Assembly (NCBI RefSeq): GCF_003991155.1
Contig: NZ_CP031293.1
DNA from: Escherichia coli
Lineage (GTDB): Bacteria; Pseudomonadota; Gammaproteobacteria; Enterobacterales; Enterobacteriaceae
Length of the DNA stretch: 64,000 nt
Direction: 5' to 3' (one strand)
Notes under the pieces: model-generated
Databases searched by the model: none
The model's input: the letters and a program-made list of their open reading frames with translations, nothing else
Told to the model about the DNA's origin: nothing
Part shown: positions 1 to 33,762 of the stretch, one piece after another
Layout of the letters: every line of letters begins with the position of its first letter
Position numbering within the stretch: position 1 is the first letter of the stretch
Position numbers and translations under genes: made by a program

Positions 1-567
1 AGCACTTTTTCTGATCCAAAGAACTAGTAAAACTGGTAACAGGCCTATAAAAAAAGAGTTTCTCCATCCATATACTTCAGCAAACTGAGGGATTATTTGT
101 GCCGCAATAATATTTCCAACAGAAAAACCACTTACCAAAAAAGCACTAGCTTTAGATTGAAGATTTTTAGGCCAACTTTCTACTGCATAAGTTGAAGCAC
201 ATGCATATTCACCAGACATCCCTAAGCCAACAATAAAACGGCAAACTGCGAGCATATATAAGTTTGTAGCAATACCGCTAAGGCCTGTTCCGACTGAGTA
301 AATGATAATTGCCCACATCATCATTGGCTTACGCCCATATTTATCAGCCATGGCACCAAAAAAACCGCCCCCAATAGGTCTGGCTATGAAGGCCACTGTC
401 CCTATTAAAGTGGCCTGAATATCCGTAATGCCAAGATCTGCTTTTATAATATGAAGAATGTAAAATATCATCATAAAATCAAAGCCATCAAATACATATC
501 CAAGCCATGCAGAAAAAAGAGCTTTCCGTTGTGGTGGATTAACTTGTTTATACCATACTGTTGCCAT
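1..567 (-). CDS. yjhB: MFS transporter, NanT paralogue (YjhB/NanX-like sialic acid family); N-terminal 189 codons only, gene runs off the window start
   Basis: Reverse-strand ORF starting ATG at 565-567 (MATVWYKQVNPPQRKALFSAWLGYVFDGFDFMMIF...); RBS AGGAAAC upstream; closely resembles the NanT/YjhB N-terminus; NanR operator upstream. Confidence 0.75.
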   Translation of the reverse strand, partial: MATVWYKQVNPPQRKALFSAWLGYVFDGFDFMMIFYILHIIKADLGITDIQATLIGTVAFIARPIGGGFFGAMADKYGRKPMMMWAIIIYSVGTGLSGIATNLYMLAVCRFIVGLGMSGEYACASTYAVESWPKNLQSKASAFLVSGFSVGNIIAAQIIPQFAEVYGWRNSFFIGLLPVLLVLWIRKSA

Positions 568-977
568 ATTTGTTTCCTGTGTTATTCTAATACAGCCCTT
601 AAAGTAAATATTAGGGAGCCTCAACAATATCCAGCAATAATTATATTGTCTTCAAATACGCCAGTACTATTAATTGTTATCAATACCTAATCAGTACAAT
701 CTTTTTCTCCATTTCTTCTTAACATATTTCACGCTATGAAAGATAAAACTGATACCCACCTTCAGTTTTGGGTCACCATCAAAAAAAATGTTCGCCAGAT
801 ATTCCACCACTGGCACAGTTCAACCCTGCTTCAAAAATTGACTTATTCATTGTGCTCATTTTCGTAGTCCGTTCAGGTTGAATAAAACTCCCTTAGTCAA
901 ATGAGGAAAGACTGAGAGGTTATTACTTTAGCTTACGTTATAGCTGTTTTCCTTTGCAGTATTTCTTTGCTTTTCTG

Positions 978-1000
978 TATACCTTTATACCTGTTATACC
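978..1000 (-). promoter_or_regulatory. NanR operator: three GGTATA repeats (GGTATAACAGGTATAAAGGTATA on the minus strand)
   Basis: Plus strand reads TATACCTTTATACCTGTTATACC, the exact reverse complement of the nan operator; lies about 410 bp upstream of the transporter start. Confidence 0.7.
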
Positions 1001-1596
1001 AGATCAAAAAACAAGCAATCCACATAACAAAACGCGTTTTGTTACTGATGTCACAAATTGAGCATATTTTTGTATCTGATAGTTTGTTACAAACACCACA
1101 ACCAAGATGCCTATTTCGTTTCAGCATCAACTGTTAAATTATCTGGTTGCCAACGAGAATACTGAGCTTTTTTGTCCCTAAGACTGACCGTCAACGCAAC
1201 AATCTTTGACTGTTTGACATTGTCATGCCCGCAGGCCAGCGGATCTAAAGACATCAGACTGCTTGCATCAGCCAGTTGCGTATCTGGCTATGTCCCTTAA
1301 TTGGTAAGGGTTCGAGGAACTCAACATTAACGCATTTTTCAGCGCATCACCGACAGTGTATATGAACGATTGCACTCTGACGATGGTTGATTTATTTGGT
1401 TGCATAGGGGCTAGCTAGTCTGGTACCGGAGGCTGGATCTGAAGTACTGACCCTAGGAATAACGCCGGGCTGACTCATATTCTGACCCATTGTCAGCCCG
1501 CGTGTTTACTGCTCTAGCTCATTTCCTGTTGTCAGGCATTCAATTCCCAACTGCAGGTTATGGCCCGGTGAGCGAACACCTGACGGCAGGTATCAC

Positions 1597-1770
1597 TCAC
1601 CCGGAGAAGGTAAATCCCTCAAGGGGCAGCAACTCTGCCAGTCGCTCCTCCGGCCACTCCGGCAGACGTGTCAGGACGTCTGTCAGCCAGGCATGTGGCT
1701 CCAGACCGTTGCGTTTCGCGGTTTCCAGCAAGCTCATTATTTGCGCAGCGCGTTCTCCCGCCATACGACA
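1597..1770 (-). pseudogene. IS66-family transposase (TnpC) C-terminal remnant
   Basis: Minus-strand translation ...AGERAAQIMSLLETAKRNGLEPHAWLTDVLTRLPEWPEERLAELLPLEGFTFSG* matches the TnpC C-terminus (compare the intact copy at 13952..15523); no upstream portion present. Confidence 0.6.
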
Positions 1771-1779
1771 GCCGTCAGA

Positions 1780-3642
1780 GCAGTGCGTCAGCGGGCGGCA
1801 GTTTTACCTGGGGTGCTGGCAGAGGTGGTTATGGCAGCGCCAGCCGCGATAATATCCACAGCAACTATGATTCCGTTAATGAGCAGAGCGGTATTTTCGC
1901 AGGCCGGGGTTATTTTGATATCACTGTGGGGAATCACACTCAGCTCGATGGTGCGGTGATTGCTTCGACAGCACCTGCCGACAGGAACTCGCTGGACACC
2001 GGTACTCTGGGCTGGTCGGATATCCATAACCAGGCAGACTATAAAGCCAGCTATACCGGAATCAGTTTATCGGGTGGCTCAGGGATGTCAGCCAGCCAGA
2101 TGGTGGCCTCAAATGCAATAGCCGGTGCGGCGAACGCACTTACCGGTATGTCCGGCAGCAGTGGACATGCTGAAGGTACCACGTCATCCGCCATCAGCGG
2201 CGGAAATCTCATTATCCGTGATAAGGAGAGTCAGAAGCAGGATATTGCCGGGCTCAGCCGGGACCCGGAAAACGCCAACGGCAGCATTGCACCGATATTT
2301 GACAAGGAGAAAGAACAGAAGCGTCTGCAGGAAGCGCAGGTTATCAGCCAGATTAGCGGTCAGATGAGTAATATCGTAATGACGTATGGCGAAACTGAAG
2401 CGATGAAAGCAGCCTGGAAAGAGCATCCTGGCATGAGCGATGCACAGTTGCGGGAGACTCCGGAATACAGAGAGGTCATGAAAGGCTACGGTACGGGCAG
2501 TTCGCCGCAGATGGTGGTACAGGCCATCACGGGCGTGCTGGGCGGACTGAATGCAGGGAACCCGGGGCAGGTATTGGCGGGCGGTCTGAATCCGGCAGTG
2601 GCACAGCTTATAAAACAGTCCACCGGCGATAACCGGGAAGCAAACCTGATGGCTCACGCAGTCTGGGGTGCACTTGCCGCACAACTGGGCGGAAACAATG
2701 CGGCTTCCGGTGCTGCTGGGGCATTCAGTGGTGAACTTGCAGCCTGGTATATCATTGATAACTACTACGGTGGTCGTACCGATAACCTGAGTGAACAGGA
2801 ACGTCAGCAAATCAGCATGCTGGCCACCATTGCCTCTGGTATTGCGGGGGGACTTGCAGGCAACAGTACGGCGTCTGCCGGTACGGGTGCACAGGCAGGA
2901 ACTCGGCTGAAAACAATATGCTGAACGTGATAGCCACTGAAACAGCAGCTAATACGGCAGCAGCAATAGCTGGTGCTACAGGTAATGCCAGTAAGGATAC
3001 CGGGAATGATAATAGCTGGGATACCGGTGGTGTTACGCTGGCTACGGGAACAGTGTGCTGTACGTGATCCGAGTCGCGATGGCACCCGAGGACCGGGGCA
3101 TGTGCTGAATGGCGACAATACAGACGGAAACAAACAGCCGAATCTGGGCAAAGACGTAGCGAGCGCAACGGATAAGGATAAAGCTGAGCTTGGTGGTGCA
3201 GGTGCTGGAATACCGGGGGGGATGGGGACCGGATAATGAAGAAAAAGCCCGTCATCAGGAGGTTCAGCAACAACGATTTGATGAACTGAGTAAAATATAT
3301 GATAAAAGTCACCCGGCCGGAGAGTTAACGGTGGATGGGCAGACTATCAGGCAGAGTTCGGTAAGTAACCGTTATGGTACGACGAAAGTGTTTGAAAGCC
3401 AGACTTTGACGGATAAACAGATCCACAATTACGCACAGCAACTGGCAGGCGATACACCGCTGAAAGAGGTAAAATCGGGAATCTACACGTCTAAACTATC
3501 AGATGGTTCGGTAATAACACTTAGAAACATATCTACATCAGAAGGTCAGACAGGCGCTCGTTGGACTATAGATATTCGTAATAACCAAAAGCTTACTGAA
3601 CTGGGGAATAAATATTCACGTGTGGAGATTAAGTTCAAATGA
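1780..3642 (+). pseudogene. cdiA: Orphan cdiA-CT module 1: 5-prime-truncated CdiA fragment with C-terminal toxin domain, interrupted by at least two frameshifts
   Basis: ORF 1668..2924 encodes a Gly/Ala-rich CdiA pretoxin region; (A)ENN motif at 2906..2917 is in a different frame; toxin ORF 3190..3642 in a third frame; homopolymer G7 at 3214..3220; left end abuts the IS66 remnant. Confidence 0.7.
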
Positions 3643-3995
3643 TTACTGAGTTAAGTGAAAGAGAATACAAGGAGTTGACAGACGCTGCAGAGGGACAGAC
3701 TCTTGATGCTATTTTGTGTTATTCAGTTCCTGATATTCACCCTGCAGAGTTTAGTTTTGCAGATAGAAGAGAAATCTTTTTTTGGGCATTAACCCGTCTT
3801 CTGAAAGAAGGGCGTATCAAACTCGCCAAGCACGGTAAGTTTTTGGAAGGAAGTGTTGACGAGCAGGTTGAGCGTTTTCGACAGGCATTTCCGAAAACAG
3901 AAGAAGAGATGGAAGACGGTATCTGGTTTTTTGATGAGAGTTGTCCGGGGGGGGCTGTTTGGGTGCTTGAAGATGGCTCTCTCGAATGGACCTGA
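3639..3995 (+). CDS. cdiI: CdiI-type immunity protein for module 1 (118 aa, intact)
   Basis: Start overlaps the toxin stop (ATGA at 3639-3642); small acidic AT-rich ORF immediately 3-prime of a CdiA-CT domain. Confidence 0.65.
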
Positions 3996-5112
3996 TAACC
4001 CCTTCACAGCGCAGGATGCGGCGCAGCGAGCGTATAACAACGATATGGCGGCCTCAGTTTTTGGTACCGGAGGGAACGATACAGGCTACAACGGCAGCGG
4101 TACAGGGACTGGCCGGCGGTAATCTGAGTGCAGCCCTGGCAGGTGGTGCAGCACCGTATCTGGCCGAAGTGGTGAAAACCATGACCACAGACCCGGTTAC
4201 CGGTGAGGTGAATAAGGCTGCAAATGTGGCTGCTCATGCCGTGGTGAATGCCGCACTGGCTGTGGCACAGGGAAATAACGCTCTTGCCGGTGCTGTAGGT
4301 GCAGCCACCGGCGAGGTGGTGGGAATGATAGCCACACAGATGTACGGTAAGCCGGTGAGTGAACTGAGCGAGACAGAGAAGCAGACGGTCTCGACACTGG
4401 CAACGGTTGCTGCTGGCCTGGCCGGTGGTCTGGTGGGCGACTCGGGGCTTCAGCGGTAGCCGGCGCACAGTCAGGTAAGACGACTGTTGAGAATAATTTA
4501 CTTGGCGGTAGTGAAGATGCTCAGGCTGCGTGGATACGCCAGCATGGTATCGACATGGCAACATGTGCAGAAAACCCTTCTGGTGCCGCCTGCCAGAAAG
4601 CAATGAATGAGAGGGATGCTGTAGGGCTGGCTCTGGCAACAGGTACAGTGGCACTACTCCCCGGTAGTGCTCAGGCTGTGTGGGGACTGGGAGCAAGTGC
4701 GAATGCTGGTATCAGTTATCTGGCTGATGGTACTGTAGATCCGACAAACGCAGCCATTGCAGGCTGGGTGAATGTGTTCAGCATGGGTAATGGCCTGGCG
4801 GGGACTGTGGGCTGGAATGCGGCAGGTGGTGCGCTGGGTAACTGGATTGACAACAAAGATCCTCTGTCTGGTGCAATTTCAAATGGTATCGGTTCTGCTG
4901 CCGGGTATGGTATCGGTAAAGGTATTACTTGGGGGACAGATAATATTACGAATGCTGTAGGAAAATGGGTGACAAATGGCTGGGATCCTAAGTACGATCC
5001 AACATGGATAAAATATGCTGAAGTAAATCGTAACGATATCATTCGAGAAGGCATGAAACCGAGCAATGTTCTTGGAACTGCTGGAGATATTGGCGGTTCT
5101 ATAGGATCCTAG
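3986..5112 (+). pseudogene. cdiA: Orphan cdiA-CT module 2: CdiA pretoxin fragment, VENN motif, Gly-rich C-terminal toxin domain; frameshifted; no immunity ORF downstream
   Basis: ORF 3986..4459 (..[10 protein letters not shown]..) then frame change; GKTTVENNLLGG at 4474..4506 (VENN 4486..4497) in frame with ORF 4555..5112; nothing coding in 5113..5230. Confidence 0.7.
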
Positions 5113-5230
5113 CTAGGTGGAAAAGTAACTTAGTCTGCAAGGATCAGGAGTTACAGACGGCATTGGCTTTACGCTTACCGTTTTTTTACGCGCCAGAACA
5201 AGACTATGATAGCGTTGCCCTTATAGACGA

Positions 5231-5644
5231 TCACATTATCGTCCACTCCGACTTTGCGCAACTACTGTAGAGTGGTGTACTCCGCGGCTTCTTTGAGGAT
5301 CTCAACTTCCATGTTTTTTTACCCAGCAAGGGCTGTAACTCTTTTATTTTTATAGCGGCAGCCAGTTCTGAGGCAGGAACAACATCCTCTCCGGTAGTAA
5401 CAGCAGCGAGACTTCCTTCCAGGTATTGTTTTTTCCACTTAAACAACAGACTGGGCTGAATACCATGCAAATGCGCCACATGGGACACCCTCATGCCAGG
5501 CTCCGTTGTCTGCTGAATAATGGCAATTTTTTCCTGAGGAGTTTTACGTTTACGAAGCTCCTGCCCCAGCAAAGTTCCAGTTATCTCAAAATTAGAACTA
5601 GTGTTAGACATATATCCAAGCCTATCTCTTATTTTAAGATACAT
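5231..5644 (-). mobile_element. IS transposase OrfA-like HTH protein (IS66/IS3-type accessory protein), solitary, with a frame change at an A7 run
   Basis: ..[78 protein letters not shown] then out of frame; a -1 shift at the A7 run (plus-strand T7 at 5315..5321) restores the conserved ending [16 protein letters not shown]; no cognate transposase ORF adjacent. Confidence 0.6.
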
Positions 5645-5671
5645 CCACTGTCTGGCGTTTCAAGGGGCGCT

Positions 5672-6049
5672 TCAAGTTTTTTCAGACAGTTGAACTAGTA
5701 TACCAATACATTCTTGTTCAGCATCAATGATACATGCTTGGTATGTCGGGAAAAAAACAGAGGTTTCTTTTACAATATATCCACAATCATAACATTGATA
5801 CCATTTCCAGCCTTTTTCCTGAATATAGGAAATATGTAGAAAAAGTGGCAAGACCGATTCGTCTGAGTATCCCTGTTTTTTAGCATTTTCAATGCATAAC
5901 AATTGCGAATTATATGCGTTATCTGATTGAGACAAAAGATATCCATTTTTCTCATGACAATACCATCTCCATTTATTGTCATCAGTCTTATAAAATTTCC
6001 ATATTAATCTCTGATTTCCAGATATCTTATAAATCATAATATACTCCAC
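5672..6049 (-). CDS. Hypothetical protein (125 aa), AT-rich; weak resemblance to DUF1508/YegP-type repeat
   Basis: Intact ORF; sequence KFYKTDDNKWRWYCHEKNGYLLSQSDNAYNSQLLCIENAKKQG loosely resembles the YegP-family motif; no function assignable. Confidence 0.4.
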   Translation of the reverse strand: MEYIMIYKISGNQRLIWKFYKTDDNKWRWYCHEKNGYLLSQSDNAYNSQLLCIENAKKQGYSDESVLPLFLHISYIQEKGWKWYQCYDCGYIVKETSVFFPTYQACIIDAEQECIGILVQLSEKT

Positions 6050-6079: not shown

Positions 6080-7444
6080 TCAGTGTTCTTTTATATATGC
6101 GGCTCTGTGACGTTCAAGTTCAATTGCACCACGATGTGATAACCAGCAGAAAATGATGCAACAAATAATACCGCAGCCAAGAAGATAAAATCCGCCATGC
6201 CAGCCAATATGATCGACCATAATACCAAACAGGCTGGTGCCCAGAGACGCACCGAAGATATAGCTCATAAAACCGCGTAAGCCTACTGCAGAACCAACAG
6301 CAAAGCTGGGAACGATCTCCATAGTCTGAACGGAAGCCAGAAATTGTGGAACGTAAATCAGGCAACCAACAATGGCAGCAAAAATTGTCACCATAAACAG
6401 CGATTCACTTTTCCAGTAGCCAATCAGGCAAATGAAAATCAGCGCCATACAAATCATCGCCAATGGCATACGACGCCCTTTAAACAGTTTGTCTGACAAC
6501 CAACCGGCAAGTAGCGTGGAAGGGATTGCGGCCCATTCAAAAAATAAAAACGCGACGCTCATTTGTTCTTTAGAAAAATGTTTCACCGTCAGCAGATAAA
6601 TAGGCAACCAGCTAATCATCCCGAAGCGTACCATGTATACAAATACGTCAACCAGTGAGACATACCAGGCATTTTTATTGCGTAATACATAAGTGCAGAA
6701 AATCTGAAAGGCACTCATGTTTTCTGGTGCTTTTACCGTCTGTCGGGTATTCAGGACGACTTTTTCTTCCGGCATCATCTCTTCCAGAGAGGGTAGACCT
6801 TCCTGACGTGGGGAACCTTTACCGAGAATCAGCACAATTACCGCAAAAACGATGGCCACGCAGGCCGGAACGATATAGCTCGCACTTTGCCAGTGCTCGC
6901 TGCCGAGTAGGGCAAAAGCGGCACCAACAATGGGTGCAACAATACCACCACCGACGTTATGAGAGATATTCCAGAAAGCACCAACCCGACCACGCTCCCG
7001 GCGAGGGAACCAGTTAGCAATAGTGATGAAAGAAGGACCAACGCCCATTCCCTGGAAAAGACCATTCAGAATAACCAATACCGCAAAAATCCAGAATGCG
7101 GTGCTGAATCCCAGGCCAACGTTAACGATGGCACATAACACCAGCCCACACGCCATAAAGACTTTCGGACTGGCTTTATCGGCAAGGCTACTCATCACTC
7201 CTTTGCTGATACCATAGGCGATAAGCATACAGCTACTCAGTACGCCAATTTGTGTGGCGCTGAGATCTAATTGCTCTTTAAGATAAGGCGTCGATAAGGT
7301 GAAATTATTACGCACGATATAGTATGCAAGATACCCCAGAAATACACTAAGTAACGCCTGCATACGATAGCGACGATATGTCACCTGAATTTTCTCCGCC
7401 GGAACACTATCCGCCGCTTGCCCCGTTTTAAATATTGATAACAT
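6080..7444 (-). CDS. pgtP: Phosphoglycerate transporter PgtP (organophosphate:phosphate antiporter, UhpT/GlpT family)
   Basis: 454-aa ORF with 12-TM MFS features and close match to remembered Salmonella PgtP; divergent from pgtCBA. Confidence 0.85.
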   Translation of the reverse strand: MLSIFKTGQAADSVPAEKIQVTYRRYRMQALLSVFLGYLAYYIVRNNFTLSTPYLKEQLDLSATQIGVLSSCMLIAYGISKGVMSSLADKASPKVFMACGLVLCAIVNVGLGFSTAFWIFAVLVILNGLFQGMGVGPSFITIANWFPRRERGRVGAFWNISHNVGGGIVAPIVGAAFALLGSEHWQSASYIVPACVAIVFAVIVLILGKGSPRQEGLPSLEEMMPEEKVVLNTRQTVKAPENMSAFQIFCTYVLRNKNAWYVSLVDVFVYMVRFGMISWLPIYLLTVKHFSKEQMSVAFLFFEWAAIPSTLLAGWLSDKLFKGRRMPLAMICMALIFICLIGYWKSESLFMVTIFAAIVGCLIYVPQFLASVQTMEIVPSFAVGSAVGLRGFMSYIFGASLGTSLFGIMVDHIGWHGGFYLLGCGIICCIIFCWLSHRGAIELERHRAAYIKEH

Positions 7445-7535
7445 GTCTTCACCTGTATTTTATATTGATATGAACACTTGGAGTATTCTGACAATGAGAG
7501 TTATATAATTGAGATGAAACATCAAACTGAAAAAA

Positions 7536-7553
7536 TGTGTCACAATTGACACA
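7536..7553. promoter_or_regulatory. Perfect inverted repeat TGTGTCA-caat-TGACACA in the pgtP/pgtC divergent intergenic region (candidate operator)
   Basis: Read directly from sequence; 7-bp arms, 4-bp spacer. Confidence 0.3.
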
Positions 7554-7842
7554 AATTAATAAAATCAAAGCCTGTTTTTGACCCATTTTATTGATGCATA
7601 GACAGGGTAGATTTATGCTTTATCTGTTTTATTGTTAGCATGTGCGGATATTAACAAATCTCATGCTGATTATCGGGTAATCACTGATTAATATATTAAC
7701 GCTCTCTTTGAGCAGATGTGTTATCAGACGAAGTGTCTGAAACGGGTAATTTTTGTCTCAATGCGATTTTTGCGGTGTATTAATATTTATGACCTGGATC
7801 ACAAACCGATTTTTTAGCTGGTGCGAAATCGGCATCAAAACC

Positions 7843-9060
7843 ATGATTCTTTTACTGTTGTTGATGGATACCGGGGCCGTCAGGGCTCAACGAAATGAAC
7901 TGGTGATGGCCACCACATTCTCACCCGGAGCTACCGCGTGGATAATACAGCGCTGGCAAACAGAGCCTGAGTCGGTAATGATCCGTACGCTTAACCGCAC
8001 CAGTGCCTCACTGGAACAGTTGCTTGATACGGCCAACGTAGAAAACGTCGATCTGATCCTGACTTCATCACCAATGCTGCTCCAGCACCTTCAGGAGCAC
8101 CAGAAACTTGCCCCGTTTGATGATGCACCCGCAGAAAGCCAAAATCTGGTGCCGGAGTCGATCCGTGCAACCTCCGTTGCAGTAGCAATATCAGGTTTTG
8201 GTCTGCTCATTAATCGTCCGGCGCTTTCTGTAAAACACCTTCCTGCCCCTGCTGACTGGGACGATCTTGCTTTGCCGATCTATCAGGACGCTTTATTGAT
8301 GAGTAGTCCGTCGCGTTCAGATACTAACCATTTAATGGTTGAGTCATTACTACAGCAAAAAGGCTGGGTGAAAGGATGGGAAACGTTGCTGACAAGTGCA
8401 GGAAACCTGGTGACAATCTCCTCCCGCAGTTTTGGCGTAGCCGATAAAATAAAAAGCGGACTCGGCGTTGCCGGCCCCGTTATCGATAACTATGCTAATT
8501 TACTGTTAAATGACCCCCATCTCTCTTTTACCTATTTCCCCCGGTCTGCGGTATCTCCCACCTACGTTGCAATTCTCAAGAAAAGCCCACACGCCGATGC
8601 AGCCCGTCGCTTTATTCACTACCTGTTAAGTCCGAAAGGACAGCGTATTCTGGCCGATGCCAATACAGGAAAATATCCGGTGACACCACTTGCCGCAGAC
8701 AACCCGCGGGCAACGCAACAACAGCTCCTGATGAATCAACCCCCGCTGAATTATCACCTTATCCTGAAACGTCAGCGTCTGGTGCAGCGCTTGTTTGATA
8801 CGGCAATTAGCTTTCGGTTAGCACAGCTAAAAGATGCCTGGCGAGCGCTGCACAGTACCGAGGCACGCCTGAAGAAACCATTACCAGAAATACGTGCACT
8901 GTTAACACAAGTGCCCGTTGCAGCGGCCAGCAGTGAAGATCCCTTCTGGCTGGCACAGTTCGATAACAAAAGCTTTGCCGAGCAGCAAATGATGGAATGG
9001 CAACTCTGGTTTCTGAATAACCAGCGCCTGGCGATAAAAAAACTGGAAGAGCTGAAATGA
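7843..9060 (+). CDS. pgtC: PgtC, phosphoglycerate transport regulatory protein (periplasmic-binding-protein-like)
   Basis: ORF 7753..9060; likely start at internal Met 7843 before a signal-peptide-like segment (MILLLLLMDTGAVRA); stop overlaps pgtB start; start uncertain. Confidence 0.7.
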   Translation: MILLLLLMDTGAVRAQRNELVMATTFSPGATAWIIQRWQTEPESVMIRTLNRTSASLEQLLDTANVENVDLILTSSPMLLQHLQEHQKLAPFDDAPAESQNLVPESIRATSVAVAISGFGLLINRPALSVKHLPAPADWDDLALPIYQDALLMSSPSRSDTNHLMVESLLQQKGWVKGWETLLTSAGNLVTISSRSFGVADKIKSGLGVAGPVIDNYANLLLNDPHLSFTYFPRSAVSPTYVAILKKSPHADAARRFIHYLLSPKGQRILADANTGKYPVTPLAADNPRATQQQLLMNQPPLNYHLILKRQRLVQRLFDTAISFRLAQLKDAWRALHSTEARLKKPLPEIRALLTQVPVAAASSEDPFWLAQFDNKSFAEQQMMEWQLWFLNNQRLAIKKLEELK

Positions 9061-11066
9061 AAAACATAACGCTGTGGCAGCGTTTAAGACAGGTCAGTAT
9101 CAGTACCAGCTTACGTTGCGCATTTCTGATGGGGGCACTACTGACCCTGATTGTCAGTAGTGTCAGTCTGTATTCATGGCATGAACAAAGCTCACAAATT
9201 CGTTACTCGCTGGATGAGTATTTTCCCCGTATTCACTCTGCTTTCCTTATTGAAGGGAACCTGAATCTGGTGGTAGACCAGCTAAATGAATTTTTGCAGG
9301 CTCCCAACACCACGGTGCGATTGCAACTTCGTACCCAGATTATTCAGCATCTCGACACCATAGAACGGCTTAGTCGGGGGCTGTCATCCCGGGAACGCCA
9401 ACAACTGACGGTCATTTTGCAGGACAGTCGATCACTGTTATCCGAGTTGGATCGTGCGCTTTACAACATGTTTTTACTACGGGAAAAGGTGAGTGAGCTA
9501 TCAGCGAGGATTGACTGGTTACACGATGATTTTACTACCGAGCTTAATTCTTTAGTGCAGGATTTCACCTGGCAGCAGGGAACGCTGCTGGATCAAATCG
9601 CCTCCCGACAGGGCGATACGGCGCAATACCTGAAGCGATCTCGTGAAGTGCAAAATGAACAGCAGCAGGTTTATACCCTGGCACGCATTGAAAATCAGAT
9701 TGTTGACGATCTGCGTGACAGACTCAATGAACTCAAATCAGGACGTGATGACGACACACAGGTGGAAACTCATCTCCGTTATTTTGAAAATCTGAAAAAA
9801 ACGGCAGATGAAAATATACGTATGCTGGATGACTGGCCTGGCACCATTACCCTGAGGCAGACTATCGATGAATTGCTGGATATGGGAATCGTAAAAAACA
9901 AAATGCCGGATACGATGCGTGAATATGTCGCCGCCCAAAAAGCCTTAGAGGATGCCAGTCGCACCAGGGAAGCGACACTGGGTCTCTTCAGAACGTTACT
10001 GGAAGCGCAGCTTGGCAGTACTCATCAACAAATGCAGATGTTTAATCAACGAATGGAACAAATTGTTCGCGTTAGCGGTGGGCTGATCCTAGTGGCGACA
10101 GCACTGGCGTTACTGCTGGCATGGGTATTCAACCATTATTTTATCCGCTCACGGTTGGTGAAACGCTTTACCCTACTGAATCAGGCCGTTGTGCAAATTG
10201 GTCTGGGAGGCACGGAAACGACTATTCCTGTTTATGGGAATGATGAACTGGGGAGAATTGCAGGATTATTACGCCATACTCTCGGGCAGCTCAATGTGCA
10301 AAAACAGCAACTTGAACAAGAAATTACCGATCGAAAGGTGATAGAAGCCGATCTGCGTGCCGCCCAGGACGAACTGATTCAGACAGCGAAGTTGGCGGTA
10401 GTCGGGCAAACGATGACCACGCTGGCCCACGAGATCAATCAGCCGCTAAATGCGCTGTCGATGTATCTGTTTACAGCCCGCAGGGCCATTGAACAGACCC
10501 AGATAGAACAGGCCTGCATGATGCTTGGTAAAGCCGAAGGGGTGATTAGTCGCATTGACGCCATTATCCGTTCACTACGGCAGTTTACCCGGCGCGCCGA
10601 ACTGGAAATATCACTCCATGCCATTGATTTAGCAAAGATGTTCAGTGCGGCCTGGGAACTTCTGGCCATGCGTCATCGCCCTTTGCAAGCTACGCTTGTT
10701 CTGCCACAAGGTACAGCCACAGTTTCAGGCGATGAGGTCAGAACCCAGCAGGTACTGGTTAACGTACTGGCGAATGCGCTTGATGTTTGTGGGCAAGGCG
10801 CTGTCATTACCGTTAACTGGCAAATGCAGGGTAAAACGCTGAACGTATTCATTGGCGATAATGGCCCGGGCTGGCCTGAGGCATTGTTGCCTTCGTTATT
10901 GAAGCCGTTTACCACCAGTAAAGAAATAGGACTGGGTATTGGTCTTTCAATTTGTGTGTCGTTAATGGAGCAAATGAAAGGGGAATTACGGCTGGCATCA
11001 ACGATGACCAGGAATGCCTGTGTGGTACTGCAATTCAGACTAACGGATGTGGAAGATGCTAAGTAG
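9057..11066 (+). CDS. pgtB: PgtB sensor histidine kinase
   Basis: 669-aa ORF with N-terminal TM/sensor region, H-box (LAHEINQPLNAL) and ATPase G-boxes (GDNGPGW, GLGIGLS); 4-bp overlap with pgtC. Confidence 0.85.
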   Translation: MKNITLWQRLRQVSISTSLRCAFLMGALLTLIVSSVSLYSWHEQSSQIRYSLDEYFPRIHSAFLIEGNLNLVVDQLNEFLQAPNTTVRLQLRTQIIQHLDTIERLSRGLSSRERQQLTVILQDSRSLLSELDRALYNMFLLREKVSELSARIDWLHDDFTTELNSLVQDFTWQQGTLLDQIASRQGDTAQYLKRSREVQNEQQQVYTLARIENQIVDDLRDRLNELKSGRDDDTQVETHLRYFENLKKTADENIRMLDDWPGTITLRQTIDELLDMGIVKNKMPDTMREYVAAQKALEDASRTREATLGLFRTLLEAQLGSTHQQMQMFNQRMEQIVRVSGGLILVATALALLLAWVFNHYFIRSRLVKRFTLLNQAVVQIGLGGTETTIPVYGNDELGRIAGLLRHTLGQLNVQKQQLEQEITDRKVIEADLRAAQDELIQTAKLAVVGQTMTTLAHEINQPLNALSMYLFTARRAIEQTQIEQACMMLGKAEGVISRIDAIIRSLRQFTRRAELEISLHAIDLAKMFSAAWELLAMRHRPLQATLVLPQGTATVSGDEVRTQQVLVNVLANALDVCGQGAVITVNWQMQGKTLNVFIGDNGPGWPEALLPSLLKPFTTSKEIGLGIGLSICVSLMEQMKGELRLASTMTRNACVVLQFRLTDVEDAK

Positions 11067-12303
11067 TGAATATTCGATTCTGCTGATTGATGATGATGCA
11101 GATGTGCTGGACGCCTACACACAGTTACTTGAACAGTCAGGCTATCGGGTTTTTGCCTGTAACAATCCTTTTGAGGCGCAGGCGTGGATACAACCAGACT
11201 GGCCAGGCATTGTGCTAAGTGATGTGTGTATGCCTGGCTGCTCTGGTATCGATTTGATGATGTTATTCCACCAGGATGATCAACAGATCCCCATTCTGCT
11301 TATCACCGGGCACGGCGACGTGCCAATGGCAGTTGATGCGGTAAAAAAAGGCGCGTGGGATTTTTTGCAAAAACCGGTTGATCCCGGCAAATTGCTTTCT
11401 CTGGTTGAAGAGGCGCTACGCCAGCGTCAATCAATCATTGCGCGTCGTCAGTATTGCCAACAGACATTGCAGGTGGAGTTGATAGGGAGAAGTGAATGGA
11501 TAAATCAGTATCGGCGACGTTTACAGCAGTTGTCTGAGACAGATATTGCCGTCTGGCTCTACGGTGCCCCTGGCACAGGACGGATGACCGGTGCACGTTA
11601 TCTGCACCAATTTGGACGTAATGCACAAGGCGAATTTGTCTACCGCGAGCTGACACCAGACAATGCACCACAGCTTAATGATTTCATTGCGCTGGCTCAG
11701 GGGGGAACATTAGTGCTCAGCCATCCTGAACACCTGACGCGTGAACAGCAGTACCATCTGGTTCAGTTACAAAGCCAGGAACACAGACCTTTTCGCCTGA
11801 TTGGTATTGGAGACACCTCGCTGGTCGAGCTGGCCGCCAGCAACCATATCATCGCGGAGCTCTATTACTGCTTTGCAATGACACAAATCGCTTGCCTGCC
11901 ATTAACTCAACGCCCCGACGATATTGAACCACTGTTTCGCCACTACCTTTGTAAGGCATGTCAACGGCTTAACCATCCTGTTCCGGAAGTGGGAAAAGAG
12001 ATGCTCAAAGAGATGATGCGCCGCATGTGGCCAAATAATGTGCGAGAGCTGGCCAATGCAGCAGAACTGTTTACTGTAGGAATATTACCGCTGGCAGAAA
12101 CAGCAAACCCGTTGATGCACGTCGGAACCCCGGCACCGCTTGACAGGCGAGTGGAGGACGCTGAGCGACAGATAATCACAGAGGCGCTTAATATCCATCA
12201 GGGGCGTATCAATGAGGTTGCTGAATATTTACAAATCCCACGGAAAAAACTCTATCTCAGAATGAAAAAATACGGTCTTAGTAAGGAGCATTATAAAATT
12301 TAA
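11047..12303 (+). CDS. pgtA: PgtA, NtrC-family (sigma-54-dependent type) response regulator
   Basis: Receiver domain (LLIDDD...D), AAA+ central domain (GAPGTGR), C-terminal HTH; overlaps pgtB by 20 nt. Confidence 0.85.
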   Translation: MWKMLSSEYSILLIDDDADVLDAYTQLLEQSGYRVFACNNPFEAQAWIQPDWPGIVLSDVCMPGCSGIDLMMLFHQDDQQIPILLITGHGDVPMAVDAVKKGAWDFLQKPVDPGKLLSLVEEALRQRQSIIARRQYCQQTLQVELIGRSEWINQYRRRLQQLSETDIAVWLYGAPGTGRMTGARYLHQFGRNAQGEFVYRELTPDNAPQLNDFIALAQGGTLVLSHPEHLTREQQYHLVQLQSQEHRPFRLIGIGDTSLVELAASNHIIAELYYCFAMTQIACLPLTQRPDDIEPLFRHYLCKACQRLNHPVPEVGKEMLKEMMRRMWPNNVRELANAAELFTVGILPLAETANPLMHVGTPAPLDRRVEDAERQIITEALNIHQGRINEVAEYLQIPRKKLYLRMKKYGLSKEHYKI

Positions 12304-12907: not shown

Positions 12908-13585
12908 ATGTCCATCATTTTTAATGGACACTATCGTATGGAATACCGGACCTGGATCACCGAAGCTTTACGTCTTCACTTTGAAGAACATTTACCACGG
13001 ATTGTGGCCGGACGTCGCCTGGGCGTACCAAAATCAACAGTTTGTGGTATGTTCGTGCGCTTCCGCAAAGCTGGCCTTTCATGGCCTCTGCCCGCAGGTA
13101 TGTCGGAGCGGGAACTTGATGCCCGTCTTTACGGGAGTGCCTCCACAGTACCTGTCGTACTTACTGAAAACACCGTTATGTCCGAAGTCCCGGTGGTAAA
13201 AAAACGTCCCCGGCGGCCTAATTTTCCTTATGAGTTTAAAATCGCCTTAGTGGAGCAGTCACTGCAGCCCGGAGCCTGTGTGGCGCAGATCGCCCGTGAA
13301 AACGGAATCAACGATAACCTGCTCTTCAACTGGCGCCATCAATACCGGAAAGGTGGCCTGCTGCCTTCCGGAAAAAATATGCCTGCACTGCTTCCCGTGA
13401 CGTTAACGCCGGAGCCGGATAATAAAATCCCGGCTCCGGCACAGGAACCAGAGCAGATAAATACACCGTCCGACAGTCTGTGCTGTGAGCTGGTTCTGCC
13501 GGCCGGAACTCTCAGGCTGAAAGGTGAACTGACACCGGCGTTATTACAGACACTTATCCGCGAAATGAAAGGGAGCAGCCACTGA
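12908..13585 (+). CDS. tnpA: IS66-family accessory protein TnpA (ORF as tracked; true start may be internal)
   Basis: Contains ..FPYEFKIALVEQSLQPGACVAQIARENGINDNLLFNWRHQYRKGG.. typical of IS66 OrfA. Confidence 0.7.
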   Translation: MSIIFNGHYRMEYRTWITEALRLHFEEHLPRIVAGRRLGVPKSTVCGMFVRFRKAGLSWPLPAGMSERELDARLYGSASTVPVVLTENTVMSEVPVVKKRPRRPNFPYEFKIALVEQSLQPGACVAQIARENGINDNLLFNWRHQYRKGGLLPSGKNMPALLPVTLTPEPDNKIPAPAQEPEQINTPSDSLCCELVLPAGTLRLKGELTPALLQTLIREMKGSSH

Positions 13586-13932
13586 TGATATCTCTCCCTG
13601 CAGGTTCGCGTATCTGGCTGGTTGCCGGTATCACCGACATGCGAAATGGCTTTAACGGCCTGGCCTCAAAAGTTCAGAACGTCCTGAAGGATGACCCGTT
13701 CTCCGGACACCTGTTCATCTTCCGCGGACGCCGGGGTGACCAGATAAAAGTGTTGTGGGCTGACAGCGACGGACTGTGCCTCTTCACCAAACGCCTGGAG
13801 CGGGGCCGCTTCGTCTGGCCGGTCACCCGTGACGGCAAGGTGCACCTTACTCCGGCCCAGTTATCCATGCTTCTTGAGGGCATCGACTGGAAACATCCAA
13901 AACGAACGGAACGCACTGGCATCCGCATATAA
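13585..13932 (+). CDS. tnpB: IS66-family TnpB
   Basis: MISLPAGSRIWLVAGITDMRNGFNGLA... is the canonical IS66 OrfB start; ATGA overlap with tnpA. Confidence 0.85.
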   Translation: MISLPAGSRIWLVAGITDMRNGFNGLASKVQNVLKDDPFSGHLFIFRGRRGDQIKVLWADSDGLCLFTKRLERGRFVWPVTRDGKVHLTPAQLSMLLEGIDWKHPKRTERTGIRI

Positions 13933-13951
13933 CCCGTTGTAAAGTGAGGAT

Positions 13952-15523
13952 ATGGACACCTCACTTGCTCATGAGAACGCCCGCCTGCGGGCACTGTTGC
14001 AGGCGCAACAGGACACCATCCGCCAGATGGCCGAATACAATTGCCTGCTCTCACAGCGGGTGGCGGCTTATGCTTCTGAAATCAACCGGCTGAAGGCGCT
14101 GGTTGCAAAACTGCAGCGCATGCAGTTCGGTAAAAGCTCAGAAAAACTTCGCGCAAAAACCGAACGACAGATACAGGAAGCACAGGAGCGAATCAGCGCA
14201 CTTCAGGAAGAAATGGCGGAAACACTGGGTGAGCAATATGACCCGGCACTGCCATCTTCCCTGCGCCAGTCTTCAGCCCGTAAACCGTTACCGGCTGCAC
14301 TTCCCCGTGAATCCCGGGTTATCCGGCCGGAAGAGGAATGCTGCCCGGCTTGTGGTGGCGAACTCAGTTCTCTGGGATGTGATGTGTCAGAGCAACTGGA
14401 GCTTATCAGCAGCGCCTTTAAGGTTATCGAAACACAACGTCCGAAACTGGCCTGTTGCCGGTGCGACCATATCGTGCAGGCACCAGTACCTTCAAAACCC
14501 ATTGCACGCAGTTATGCCGGAGCGGGGCTTCTGGCTCATATCGTCACCGGGAAGTATGCAGACCATCTGCCGTTATACCGCCAGTCAGAAATATACCGTC
14601 GTCAGGGCGTGGAACTGAGCCGCGCCACGCTGGGGCGCTGGACCAGTGCCGTTGCTGAACTGCTGGAGCCGCTGTATGACGTGCTGCGCCAGTATGTGCT
14701 GATGCCCGGTAAAGTCCATGCGGATGATATCCCCGTTCCGGTCCAGGAGCCGGGCAGTGGTAAAACAAGAACTGCCCGGCTGTGGGTTTACGTCCGTGAT
14801 GACCGTAACGCCGGTTCACAGATGCCCCCGGCGGTCTGGTTCGCGTACAGCCCGGACCGGAAAGGTATCCATCCACAGAATCACCTGGCCGGTTACAGCG
14901 GTGTGCTTCAGGCCGATGCTTACGGTGGTTACCGGGCGTTATACGAATCCGGCAGAATAACGGAAGCCGCGTGTATGGCCCATGCCCGGAGAAAAATCCA
15001 CGATGTGCATGCAAGAGCGCCTACCGATATCACCACGGAAGCCCTGCAGCGTATCGGTGAACTGTATGCAATCGAGGCAGAGGTCCGGGGATGTTCAGCA
15101 GAACAGCGTCTGGCGGCAAGAAAAGCCAGAGCTGCGCCACTGATGCAGTCGTTGTACGACTGGATACAGACTCAGATGAAAACACTGTCGCGTCACTCGG
15201 ATACGGCAAAAGCGTTCGCATACCTGCTGAAACAGTGGGGTGGCCTGAACGTGTACTGCAGTAATGGCTGGGTGGAAATCGACAACAACATCGCAGAGAA
15301 CGCCTTACGGGGAGTAGCCGTAGGCCGGAAAAACTGGCTGTTCGCAGGTTCCGACAGCGGTGGTGAACATGCGGCGGTGTTGTACTCGCTGATCGGCACA
15401 TGTCGTCTGAACAATGTGGAGCTAGAAAAGTGGCTGCGCTACGTCATTGAGCATATCCAGGACTGGCCGGCAAACCGGGTACGCGATCTGTTGCCCTGGA
15501 AAGTTGATCTGAGCTCTCAGTAA
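13952..15523 (+). CDS. tnpC: IS66-family transposase TnpC
   Basis: 523-aa ORF with N-terminal leucine zipper, CxxC zinc ribbon (CPACGG) and DDE domain. Confidence 0.85.
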
Positions 15524-33686: not shown

Positions 33687-33762
33687 TGGTGCCCGGACTC
33701 GGAATCGAACCAAGGACACGGGGATTTTCAATCCCCTGCTCTACCGACTGAGCTATCCGGGC
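33687..33762 (-). tRNA. pheV: tRNA-Phe (GAA anticodon), 76 nt including CCA
   Basis: Reverse complement reads GCCCGGATAGCTCAGTCGGTAGAGCAGGGGATTGAAAATCCCCGTGTCCTTGGTTCGATTCCGAGTCCGGGCACCA; locus assigned as pheV from flanking yqgA/speC. Confidence 0.95.

Follow-up and report, generated by a model that had tools for sequence, protein, structure and literature searches.

A truncated ISEc48-like orfA carrying an A7 run in a pheV-anchored island of Escherichia coli is very probably a decayed relic

Related elements and genomic setting

In IS2, orfA encodes the repressor InsA/TnpA, and a −1 frameshift at A_AAA_AAG, close to where orfA ends, joins it to orfB as OrfAB. For ISEc48, which proved to be closer to the sequence studied here, the literature search yielded incidental mentions only. 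Programmed −1 frameshifting follows in-phase motif rules that involve an X_XXZ_ZZN heptamer or a Z_ZZN tetramer, combined with a stimulator (an SD-like sequence upstream or a structure downstream), and in E. coli tetramers lacking a stimulator give about 0.15% frameshifting against a background of 0.11% (PMC4066793). Runs at which transcriptional slippage is under selection or put to use have 9, sometimes 8, bases, and in the insertion sequences that rely on it the run is conserved in functional copies and lies at the overlap of two ORFs (PMC1088944). The A7 run of a solitary orfA-like ORF was compared with these systems in the window, by which we mean the whole 64-kb stretch of E. coli DNA that was analysed. 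The ORF is very probably a dead relic of an ISEc48-like element of the IS3 family (IS2 group) that underwent ordinary decay, the run having no decoding role.

RefSeq annotation was read from E. coli FDAARGOS_1284, which is identical to the window (record position = 756750 + window position). The locus is part of a pheV-anchored pathogenicity island full of IS debris, which is anchored at tRNA-Phe (33687..33762), adjoins yqgA and speC and, besides the features in Table 1, carries a pap operon with papG-III, an integrase and several further IS pseudogenes. The stump of the element is an ordinary IS pseudogene and already stands in RefSeq as 'transposase; frameshifted; incomplete; partial in the middle of a contig; missing C-terminus'. 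The cdiA region beside it consists of a row of orphan CdiA-CT (VENN-motif) toxin fragments with small putative immunity genes (DUF596); the full cdiA lies upstream of these fragments and ends just before the window starts. In strain 95-3322 an IS100 sits among the orphan CdiA-CT fragments.

Table 1. Coordinates of the stump, its lesions and the neighbouring features in the window
Feature	Position	Strand	Basis or remark
cdiA region with orphan VENN toxin modules	1926..5112	+	island annotation
Isolated IS66-family terminal repeat (GTAAGCGTAAAGCCAATGCC...)	5130..5178	-	same end in L004
Decayed 5′ uhpA-like response-regulator fragment and upstream region	5179..5277	+	~87% identity to uhpA over 5181..5267
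Longest zero-frame ORF, 137 aa	5231..5644	-	ORF translation
Tail in the −1 frame, 17 residues	5262..5315	-	conserved only to EY at 5278
PGAP pseudogene I6K14_RS03610	5277..5584		RefSeq annotation
Right breakpoint inside orfA	5277..5278		after GAGTA; IS homology stops
ISEc48-like IS3-family (IS2-group) remnant: left end and first ~85% of orfA	5278..5674	-	DNA identity
orfA pseudogene (IS2 TnpA/InsA-like HTH protein)	5278..5611	-	PF01527, PRK09413
Frameshift lesion, allele A7C (A7 at 5320..5314, then C at 5313)	5313..5320	-	alignments
Second lesion, 3-bp in-frame deletion (ATAAAACAAAT to ATAAAAAT)	5347..5351	-	Gln lost in AAIKQIK
Left terminal inverted repeat (IRL), TGAAGCGCCCCTTGAAACGCCAGACAGTGGATGTATCTTAA	5634..5674	-	alignments with intact copies
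Flanking hypothetical gene WP_000639469, 121 aa, downstream of pgtP	5672..6037	-	
pgtP-pgtCBA	6080..12303		island annotation
IS66-family element, intact	12908..15523		island annotation

Identity and anatomy of the stump

The solitary OrfA-type ORF of the preliminary description is indeed present on the minus strand, and its 137-aa product contains an HTH_Tnp_1 domain (PF01527, E=1e-13). The best NCBIfam match of this product was 'IS2 repressor TnpA' (PRK09413), at 120 bits over profile positions 4-93 of 121 in the zero frame and 141 bits over positions 4-104 of 121 after frame correction. Both scores are below the cut-off of 229 bits because the window protein is truncated and diverged; the 131-aa OrfA of an intact relative reached 202 bits over positions 4-121. 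The OrfB of intact relatives likewise matched 'IS2 transposase TnpB' best (PRK09409), with 412 bits against a cut-off of 597, and the gene layout is that of IS2. With scores under the IS2 cut-offs for both proteins, these elements are relatives of IS2 and not IS2 itself. Judged by profile matches and DNA identity, the ORF represents the 5′ ~85% of the orfA of an ISEc48-like element of the IS3 family, IS2 group. Its start codon is likely the ATG at 5611 (MSNTSS...), which matches the 131-aa database proteins, while the ATG at 5644 falls within the terminal repeat. An IS66 accessory TnpA, first suggested by the motif 'GKKTME..LKEA', was ruled out by NCBIfam scores (the IS66 TnpA models gave 42-44 bits, where 74 and 150 are required) as well as by the 94% identity that the DNA shows with copies of the IS3 family. 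Neither tnpB nor tnpC adjoins the ORF, and the intact IS66-family element further along the window is unrelated to it.

Two copies served as references: an intact relative on E. coli plasmid NZ_CP027324 (L002), ~1.34 kb long with a 131-aa orfA and an orfB with an rve domain, which PGAP names 'IS3 family transposase', and ISEc48 on plasmid p3R-3 (L007), named 'IS3-like element ISEc48 family transposase' and annotated 'programmed frameshift'. The stump is 93.9% identical in DNA to L002 over 395 bp (L002 IS positions 8-402), continuously across the A7 site, and 85.3% identical to ISEc48. With ISEc48 and its sister lineage (L002 and a further intact copy, L027) it shares the same orfA and an IRL of the type TGA.C..GCCCC.TGAAA..CCAGACAG..GATGTATCTTAA. 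By these identities the relic belongs to a sister sub-lineage of ISEc48 with intact copies in E. coli chromosomes and plasmids. Unlike them, it retains only 397 bp of the ~1340 bp, lacks orfB, the right repeat and the native frameshift site, and carries a mutated IRL tip, a 3-bp deletion and a frameshift.

The left boundary of the stump is a true IS end, since an IS-free site (L017; pgtP followed by a 123-aa ORF) can be aligned with the window as far as ...CTGAAAAAAC, and the similarity ends exactly where IS homology starts, at TGAAGCGCCCC... This empty site fixes the left boundary only, the right end and right flank of the element having been deleted. The insertion lies at the extreme 3′ end of the gene for WP_000639469, whose last two codons were replaced (..EKTVI-stop to ..EKT-stop) and whose stop codon is now formed by the first three IS bases, TGA. 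Of the two terminal repeats of the 5′-TG ... CA-3′ type, only the IRL was found, and its tip is mutated relative to TGAACCGGCCCC of intact copies by one lost and one substituted base. A promoter-like site was found by scanning within the IRL (5663..5636, minus strand), from which the stump could be transcribed.

At its other side the stump ends after codon Tyr-112 of orfA (Tyr-113 in intact OrfA), and the sequence past GAG TA had no similarity to any part of the IS. Because this breakpoint lies within the IS, it is the junction of a deletion or rearrangement and not a transposition end. The gene orfA is short of its final 19 codons here (GQSRKWIAHAPLLPTDKE, plus the remainder of the Tyr codon), and the element has also lost the orfA/orfB overlap, orfB and the right repeat. 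Within that overlap intact copies have CGA_AAA_T as their sole in-phase motif, ~14 nt past the window's breakpoint and in a segment deleted here; going partly by what is known of IS2, it probably sits at the place of A_AAA_AAG, from which it differs. When the intact IS was compared with the whole 64-kb window by BLAST, only positions 8-402 matched, apart from the unrelated scrap described below, and neither orfB, with its DDE/rve transposase domain, nor the right end of the element was present. The earlier statement that no partner transposase is adjacent and that the element cannot be autonomous was thus borne out, and agrees with the RefSeq pseudogene. An unannotated scrap of ~190 bp at 26930..27117 is ~70% identical to the orfB 3′ region of an ISEc48-like element; it is debris of another, unrelated IS3-family element and not the partner of the stump.

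Beyond the breakpoint, 10 bases of filler (5268..5277) are followed by ~87 bp (5181..5267) that are ~87% identical to the 5′ end of E. coli uhpA. This fragment is itself frameshifted, and its translation is one that we take to resemble the UhpA N-terminus. Against it abuts the outer end of an IS66-type repeat of ~50 bp (GTAAGCGTAAAGCC...), the rest of that element being gone; in L004 (plasmid pLAO40) an element that starts with the same IS66 end splits a related IS. The repeat was rejected as a part of the intact IS66-family element of the island, as its 29-mer is unique in the window even at 3 mismatches. The idea that 5277..5113 might be the right end of the same IS, as in a MITE-like internal deletion, was also rejected, the uhpA-like fragment and the IS66-type end being found there instead. 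The last gene of the cdiA orphan region (ORF 4555..5112) stops within ~20 bp of the IS66-type repeat and may have been cut short by the same event as the IS66 element.

The A7 run and its alleles

The A7 run is real, although its plus-strand T7 lies at 5314..5320, one base off the 5315..5321 first given. The last 25 codons of the 137-aa ORF (WKLRSS...TIM-stop) are out-of-frame or foreign sequence, and the zero-frame tail is non-conserved as had been described. The further claim, that a −1 shift restores the conserved ending of the family, stood in part: homology does resume in the −1 frame, in which 12 conserved residues are regained, but the TTLQ and stop codon (5264..5262) that close this frame are not the family ending. 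They are read from foreign DNA, antisense of the decayed uhpA-like fragment, whereas intact OrfA continues past the conserved stretch with ...EYGQSRKWIAHAPLLPTDKE. A slip within the run would moreover yield GKKNMEVE; the GKKTMEVE first proposed requires a shift on the ACA codon.

Where intact copies have GGT AAG AAA ACC ATG GAA (GKKTME), the window has GGT AAA AAA A-C ATG G. Relative to the intact allele, AAGAAAACC, the window thus has one substitution and one base fewer, the lost base being either G or C, which the alignment cannot tell apart (G lost and C to A, or G to A and C lost). Comparison of A-run length with intact copies had been proposed as a check; the runs do differ, by a substitution and a lost base and not by a simple change of length. 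Since the tract of functional copies is interrupted, the A7 run is not a shortened form of a functional run. Intact homologues reading through the same A7 run in the zero frame had been named as the observation that would speak against a shift; the run is missing altogether from functional copies, of which those in L002, L007, L004 and L027 read AAG AAA ACC in the zero frame. The L027 copy is intact, is annotated, like that of L002, 'IS3 family transposase, programmed frameshift' and carries AAGAAAACC.

An allele census of copies with matching flanks in complete E. coli genomes gave ~111 records with AAGAAAACC, two with A8C and one with A7C; a second −1 allele, A6CC, was found in L009 and L010. 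A8C (L012 199..209, L025 and L026) reads in frame, GGT AAA AAA AAC ATG, with GKKN instead of GKKT, and in L012 gives GKKNMEVE. The allele would fit either a +1 slip in an A7C copy or a role as the forerunner of A7C. It was not supported as a common active ancestor, occurring in 2/5426 complete E. coli genomes with both copies truncated. The notion that A7C is the norm of the sub-lineage, entertained when only L002 seemed to be in frame, was due to sampling bias, given the many records with AAGAAAACC and the same flanks. Among database proteins intact tails predominate and frameshift tails (...[FL]RSS) form small clusters. At least eight OrfA proteins of the family (P0063, P0074, P0079, P0081, P0083, P0087, P0092 and P0093) turn unrelated just past ...LLGKK, so that breakage, or insertion of other elements, may favour the A-rich tract, which may also be an indel hotspot.

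A7C, the same two-change allele, recurs in no fewer than five unrelated settings: the present locus, a plasmid of Shigella dysenteriae (L003), the chromosomal L006, L018/L019, where the copy adjoins a HORMA/AAA locus, and L021-L024, where the copies adjoin a Tn3-family transposase. All other A7C copies examined are defective, being truncated or broken by additional indels or stops. Such recurrence is not easily had from purely independent decay and counts against simple decay. Candidate explanations are gene conversion between IS copies, spread of a frameshifted copy by transposase acting in trans, and one-step contraction of a rare in-frame long run. At 1..1920 of L018/L019 the neighbouring genes have matches to bacterial HORMA, AAA-ATPase and RNase_T-like domains, and this neighbourhood may be a CBASS-type defence locus.

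Order of events and competing explanations

At the same locus ~140 genomes have a remnant, which is either of the window type, having the IS66 end and an arrangement that is identical in 55 complete genomes, or of a type in which pgtP, the flanking ORF and the remnant are followed by an aldose-epimerase gene (L015/L016 type; 86 genomes). In place of the 3-bp deletion of the window, L015 and L016 have a 2-bp deletion, and L016 also has +1 in an A6 run. The products of the sampled remnants are 126, 117, 97 and 57 aa long, the shortest (L016) losing its frame near codon 28, where the HTH domain begins. With different indels breaking the frame, no reading frame or protein is conserved among the remnants.

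The junction GAGTAC / ACCACTCTAC is common to the window, L005, L011, L015 and L016, and is therefore a single old event that was later moved about with different neighbouring modules; the junction of stump and uhpA-like fragment is an old, widely shared rearrangement scar. L005-type loci (>1000 records), in which no more than ~90 bp of the IS survive, read in frame here (AAG AAA ACA), and L011, a metagenome contig, shares flank, mutated IRL tip and breakpoint with the window, yet reads AAG AAA ACC and lacks the 3-bp deletion. As both carry the junction and yet are in frame, these alignments suggest that the stump was in frame when truncated and was frameshifted later. L011 was initially taken as firm proof of this order and then downgraded, no counterpart at >=99% being found among 5426 complete genomes. 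Between L005 and the window the IS part has diverged by ~12% and the uhpA-like part by ~4%, and gene conversion by other IS copies may have blurred the order of events. The conclusion of decay is independent of that order. The IS66 end is missing from the L011, L015, L016 and L005 versions of the locus, which places its insertion, and the coming of the cdiA orphan modules, last in the history of the window's lineage. The L005 junction itself adjoins a sugar island (aldose-epimerase/fucP/rbsK), with an ilvN fragment nearby.

The course of events accordingly begins with transposition of the element into the 3′ end of the small gene downstream of pgtP, as the comparison with the empty site shows. 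A deletion or rearrangement, of which the junction is seen and the mechanism is presumed, would then have removed everything 3′ of orfA codon 112 together with flanking DNA, fusing the stump to the decayed uhpA-like fragment and leaving it immobile both in cis and in trans. Neutral mutations, mainly indels at A-rich tracts, would have followed in an order that is presumptive: the change from AAGAAAACC to AAAAAAAC created the A7 run and the frameshift together, and the 3-bp deletion arose 30 bp upstream. Finally, in the lineage of the window, an IS66-family element inserted 99 bp past the junction and was almost wholly deleted, which put the cdiA orphan toxin modules alongside.

The preliminary description had left open whether the run was a slippery site or a sign of decay. 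It is highly improbable that it works as a recoding site at which a −1 ribosomal slip, or an A added by RNA polymerase, gives a functional repressor like InsA of IS2. The 12 residues regained in the −1 frame would fit such a site, as would an in-phase A_AA.A tetramer (motif definition in PMC4066793) and the A8 allele of L012, by which the run slips at the DNA level. The phase GGT_AAA_AAA_ACA, however, contains no X_XXZ_ZZN heptamer and that tetramer only, and no stimulatory structure or known recoding element accompanies it: the 89 nt downstream fold at -18.5 kcal/mol (z=+0.41), no better than shuffled sequences, and the Rfam search matched no recoding element. Tetramers that lack a stimulator stay close to background (PMC4066793). 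The run resembles those of slippage-using elements in that a one-base change restores a transposase-related frame, but its seven bases fall short of the 8-9 used there (PMC1088944), it is not conserved and it has no downstream transposase ORF. The intact, annotated-functional copies do without the run, the sister remnants are frame-broken elsewhere, even at the start of the HTH, and a fully corrected product would still lack the last 19 family residues and end in the foreign TTLQ. Rfam, folding and promoter/terminator scans gave nothing that pointed to a function. The slippery-site option was not supported, and the decay option was upheld by the truncation, the further lesions and the RefSeq entry as a frameshifted, incomplete pseudogene. 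The A7 run is without decoding function, a mutational scar and not a recoding signal, and at most it permits trace adventitious slippage, which would lead to a truncated product with a foreign end. Nor do we give more than slight credence to a domesticated stump whose zero-frame product, an HTH with a novel tail, would act as a regulator for host or island or would repress related IS copies in trans. Residues 20-80 of the window product do form an intact HTH region, the IRL has kept its native promoter-like site, 55 complete genomes have the identical arrangement, and NCBIfam names IS2 OrfA a repressor; but the identity among those genomes reflects recent common ancestry of the island and not selection, the 86 genomes of the other type are broken differently, with 97-aa and 57-aa products, and PGAP treats the locus as a pseudogene.

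There is a negligible chance that the gene is really in frame and that a homopolymer error in sequencing or assembly made it look frameshifted. Homopolymers are error-prone on some platforms, but over a region of 661 bp at least 15 complete genomes, each sequenced independently, agree at 100%, 55 records match at >=99%, and A7C also occurs in L015, L016, L003, L006 and L018-L024, which come from unrelated projects. The recurrence of A7C raises an alternative of another sort, which we regard as improbable: the A-tract would be a hypermutable on/off point in one ISEc48-like sub-lineage, and the window copy an 'off' relic of it. On that account an in-frame A8C, or a hypothetical A7CC, would lose one base in a single step. 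If true, it would explain both the recurring A7C and the A6CC allele in its two copies, with transposase supply toggled by run-length mutation or rescued at a low level by slippage. Ordinary decay of an ISEc48-like relic is the reading retained here, and it carries little weight beyond annotation hygiene. The lesson is that an apparently slippery A7 can be a by-product of decay, and that such a run should be compared with functional copies and not judged by counting its length. The common breakpoint and the nested IS scars (stump, uhpA-like fragment and IS66 end) are markers of the shuffling of pgt, sugar-utilisation and cdiA modules in E. coli islands.

Two further observations concern related insertions. 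E. coli JCM 20135 (L008 1590..1913) has a paralogue of the flanking ORF with the identical junction between ORF and IS end (..CTGAAAAAACT / TGA..), from which the repeat runs on into the 3′ end of orfB, so that the body of the IS is turned the other way round; the terminal repeats (~40 bp) may have mediated an in-situ inversion, or a second insertion may have hit a hotspot. Target duplications of the IS3 family are only 3-5 bp long, and the 14-17 bp direct repeat, (ACA)CTGATATGAATAAT, that flanks the intact IS in NZ_CP027324 (L002 2506..2521 and 3859..3875) is therefore unusually long.
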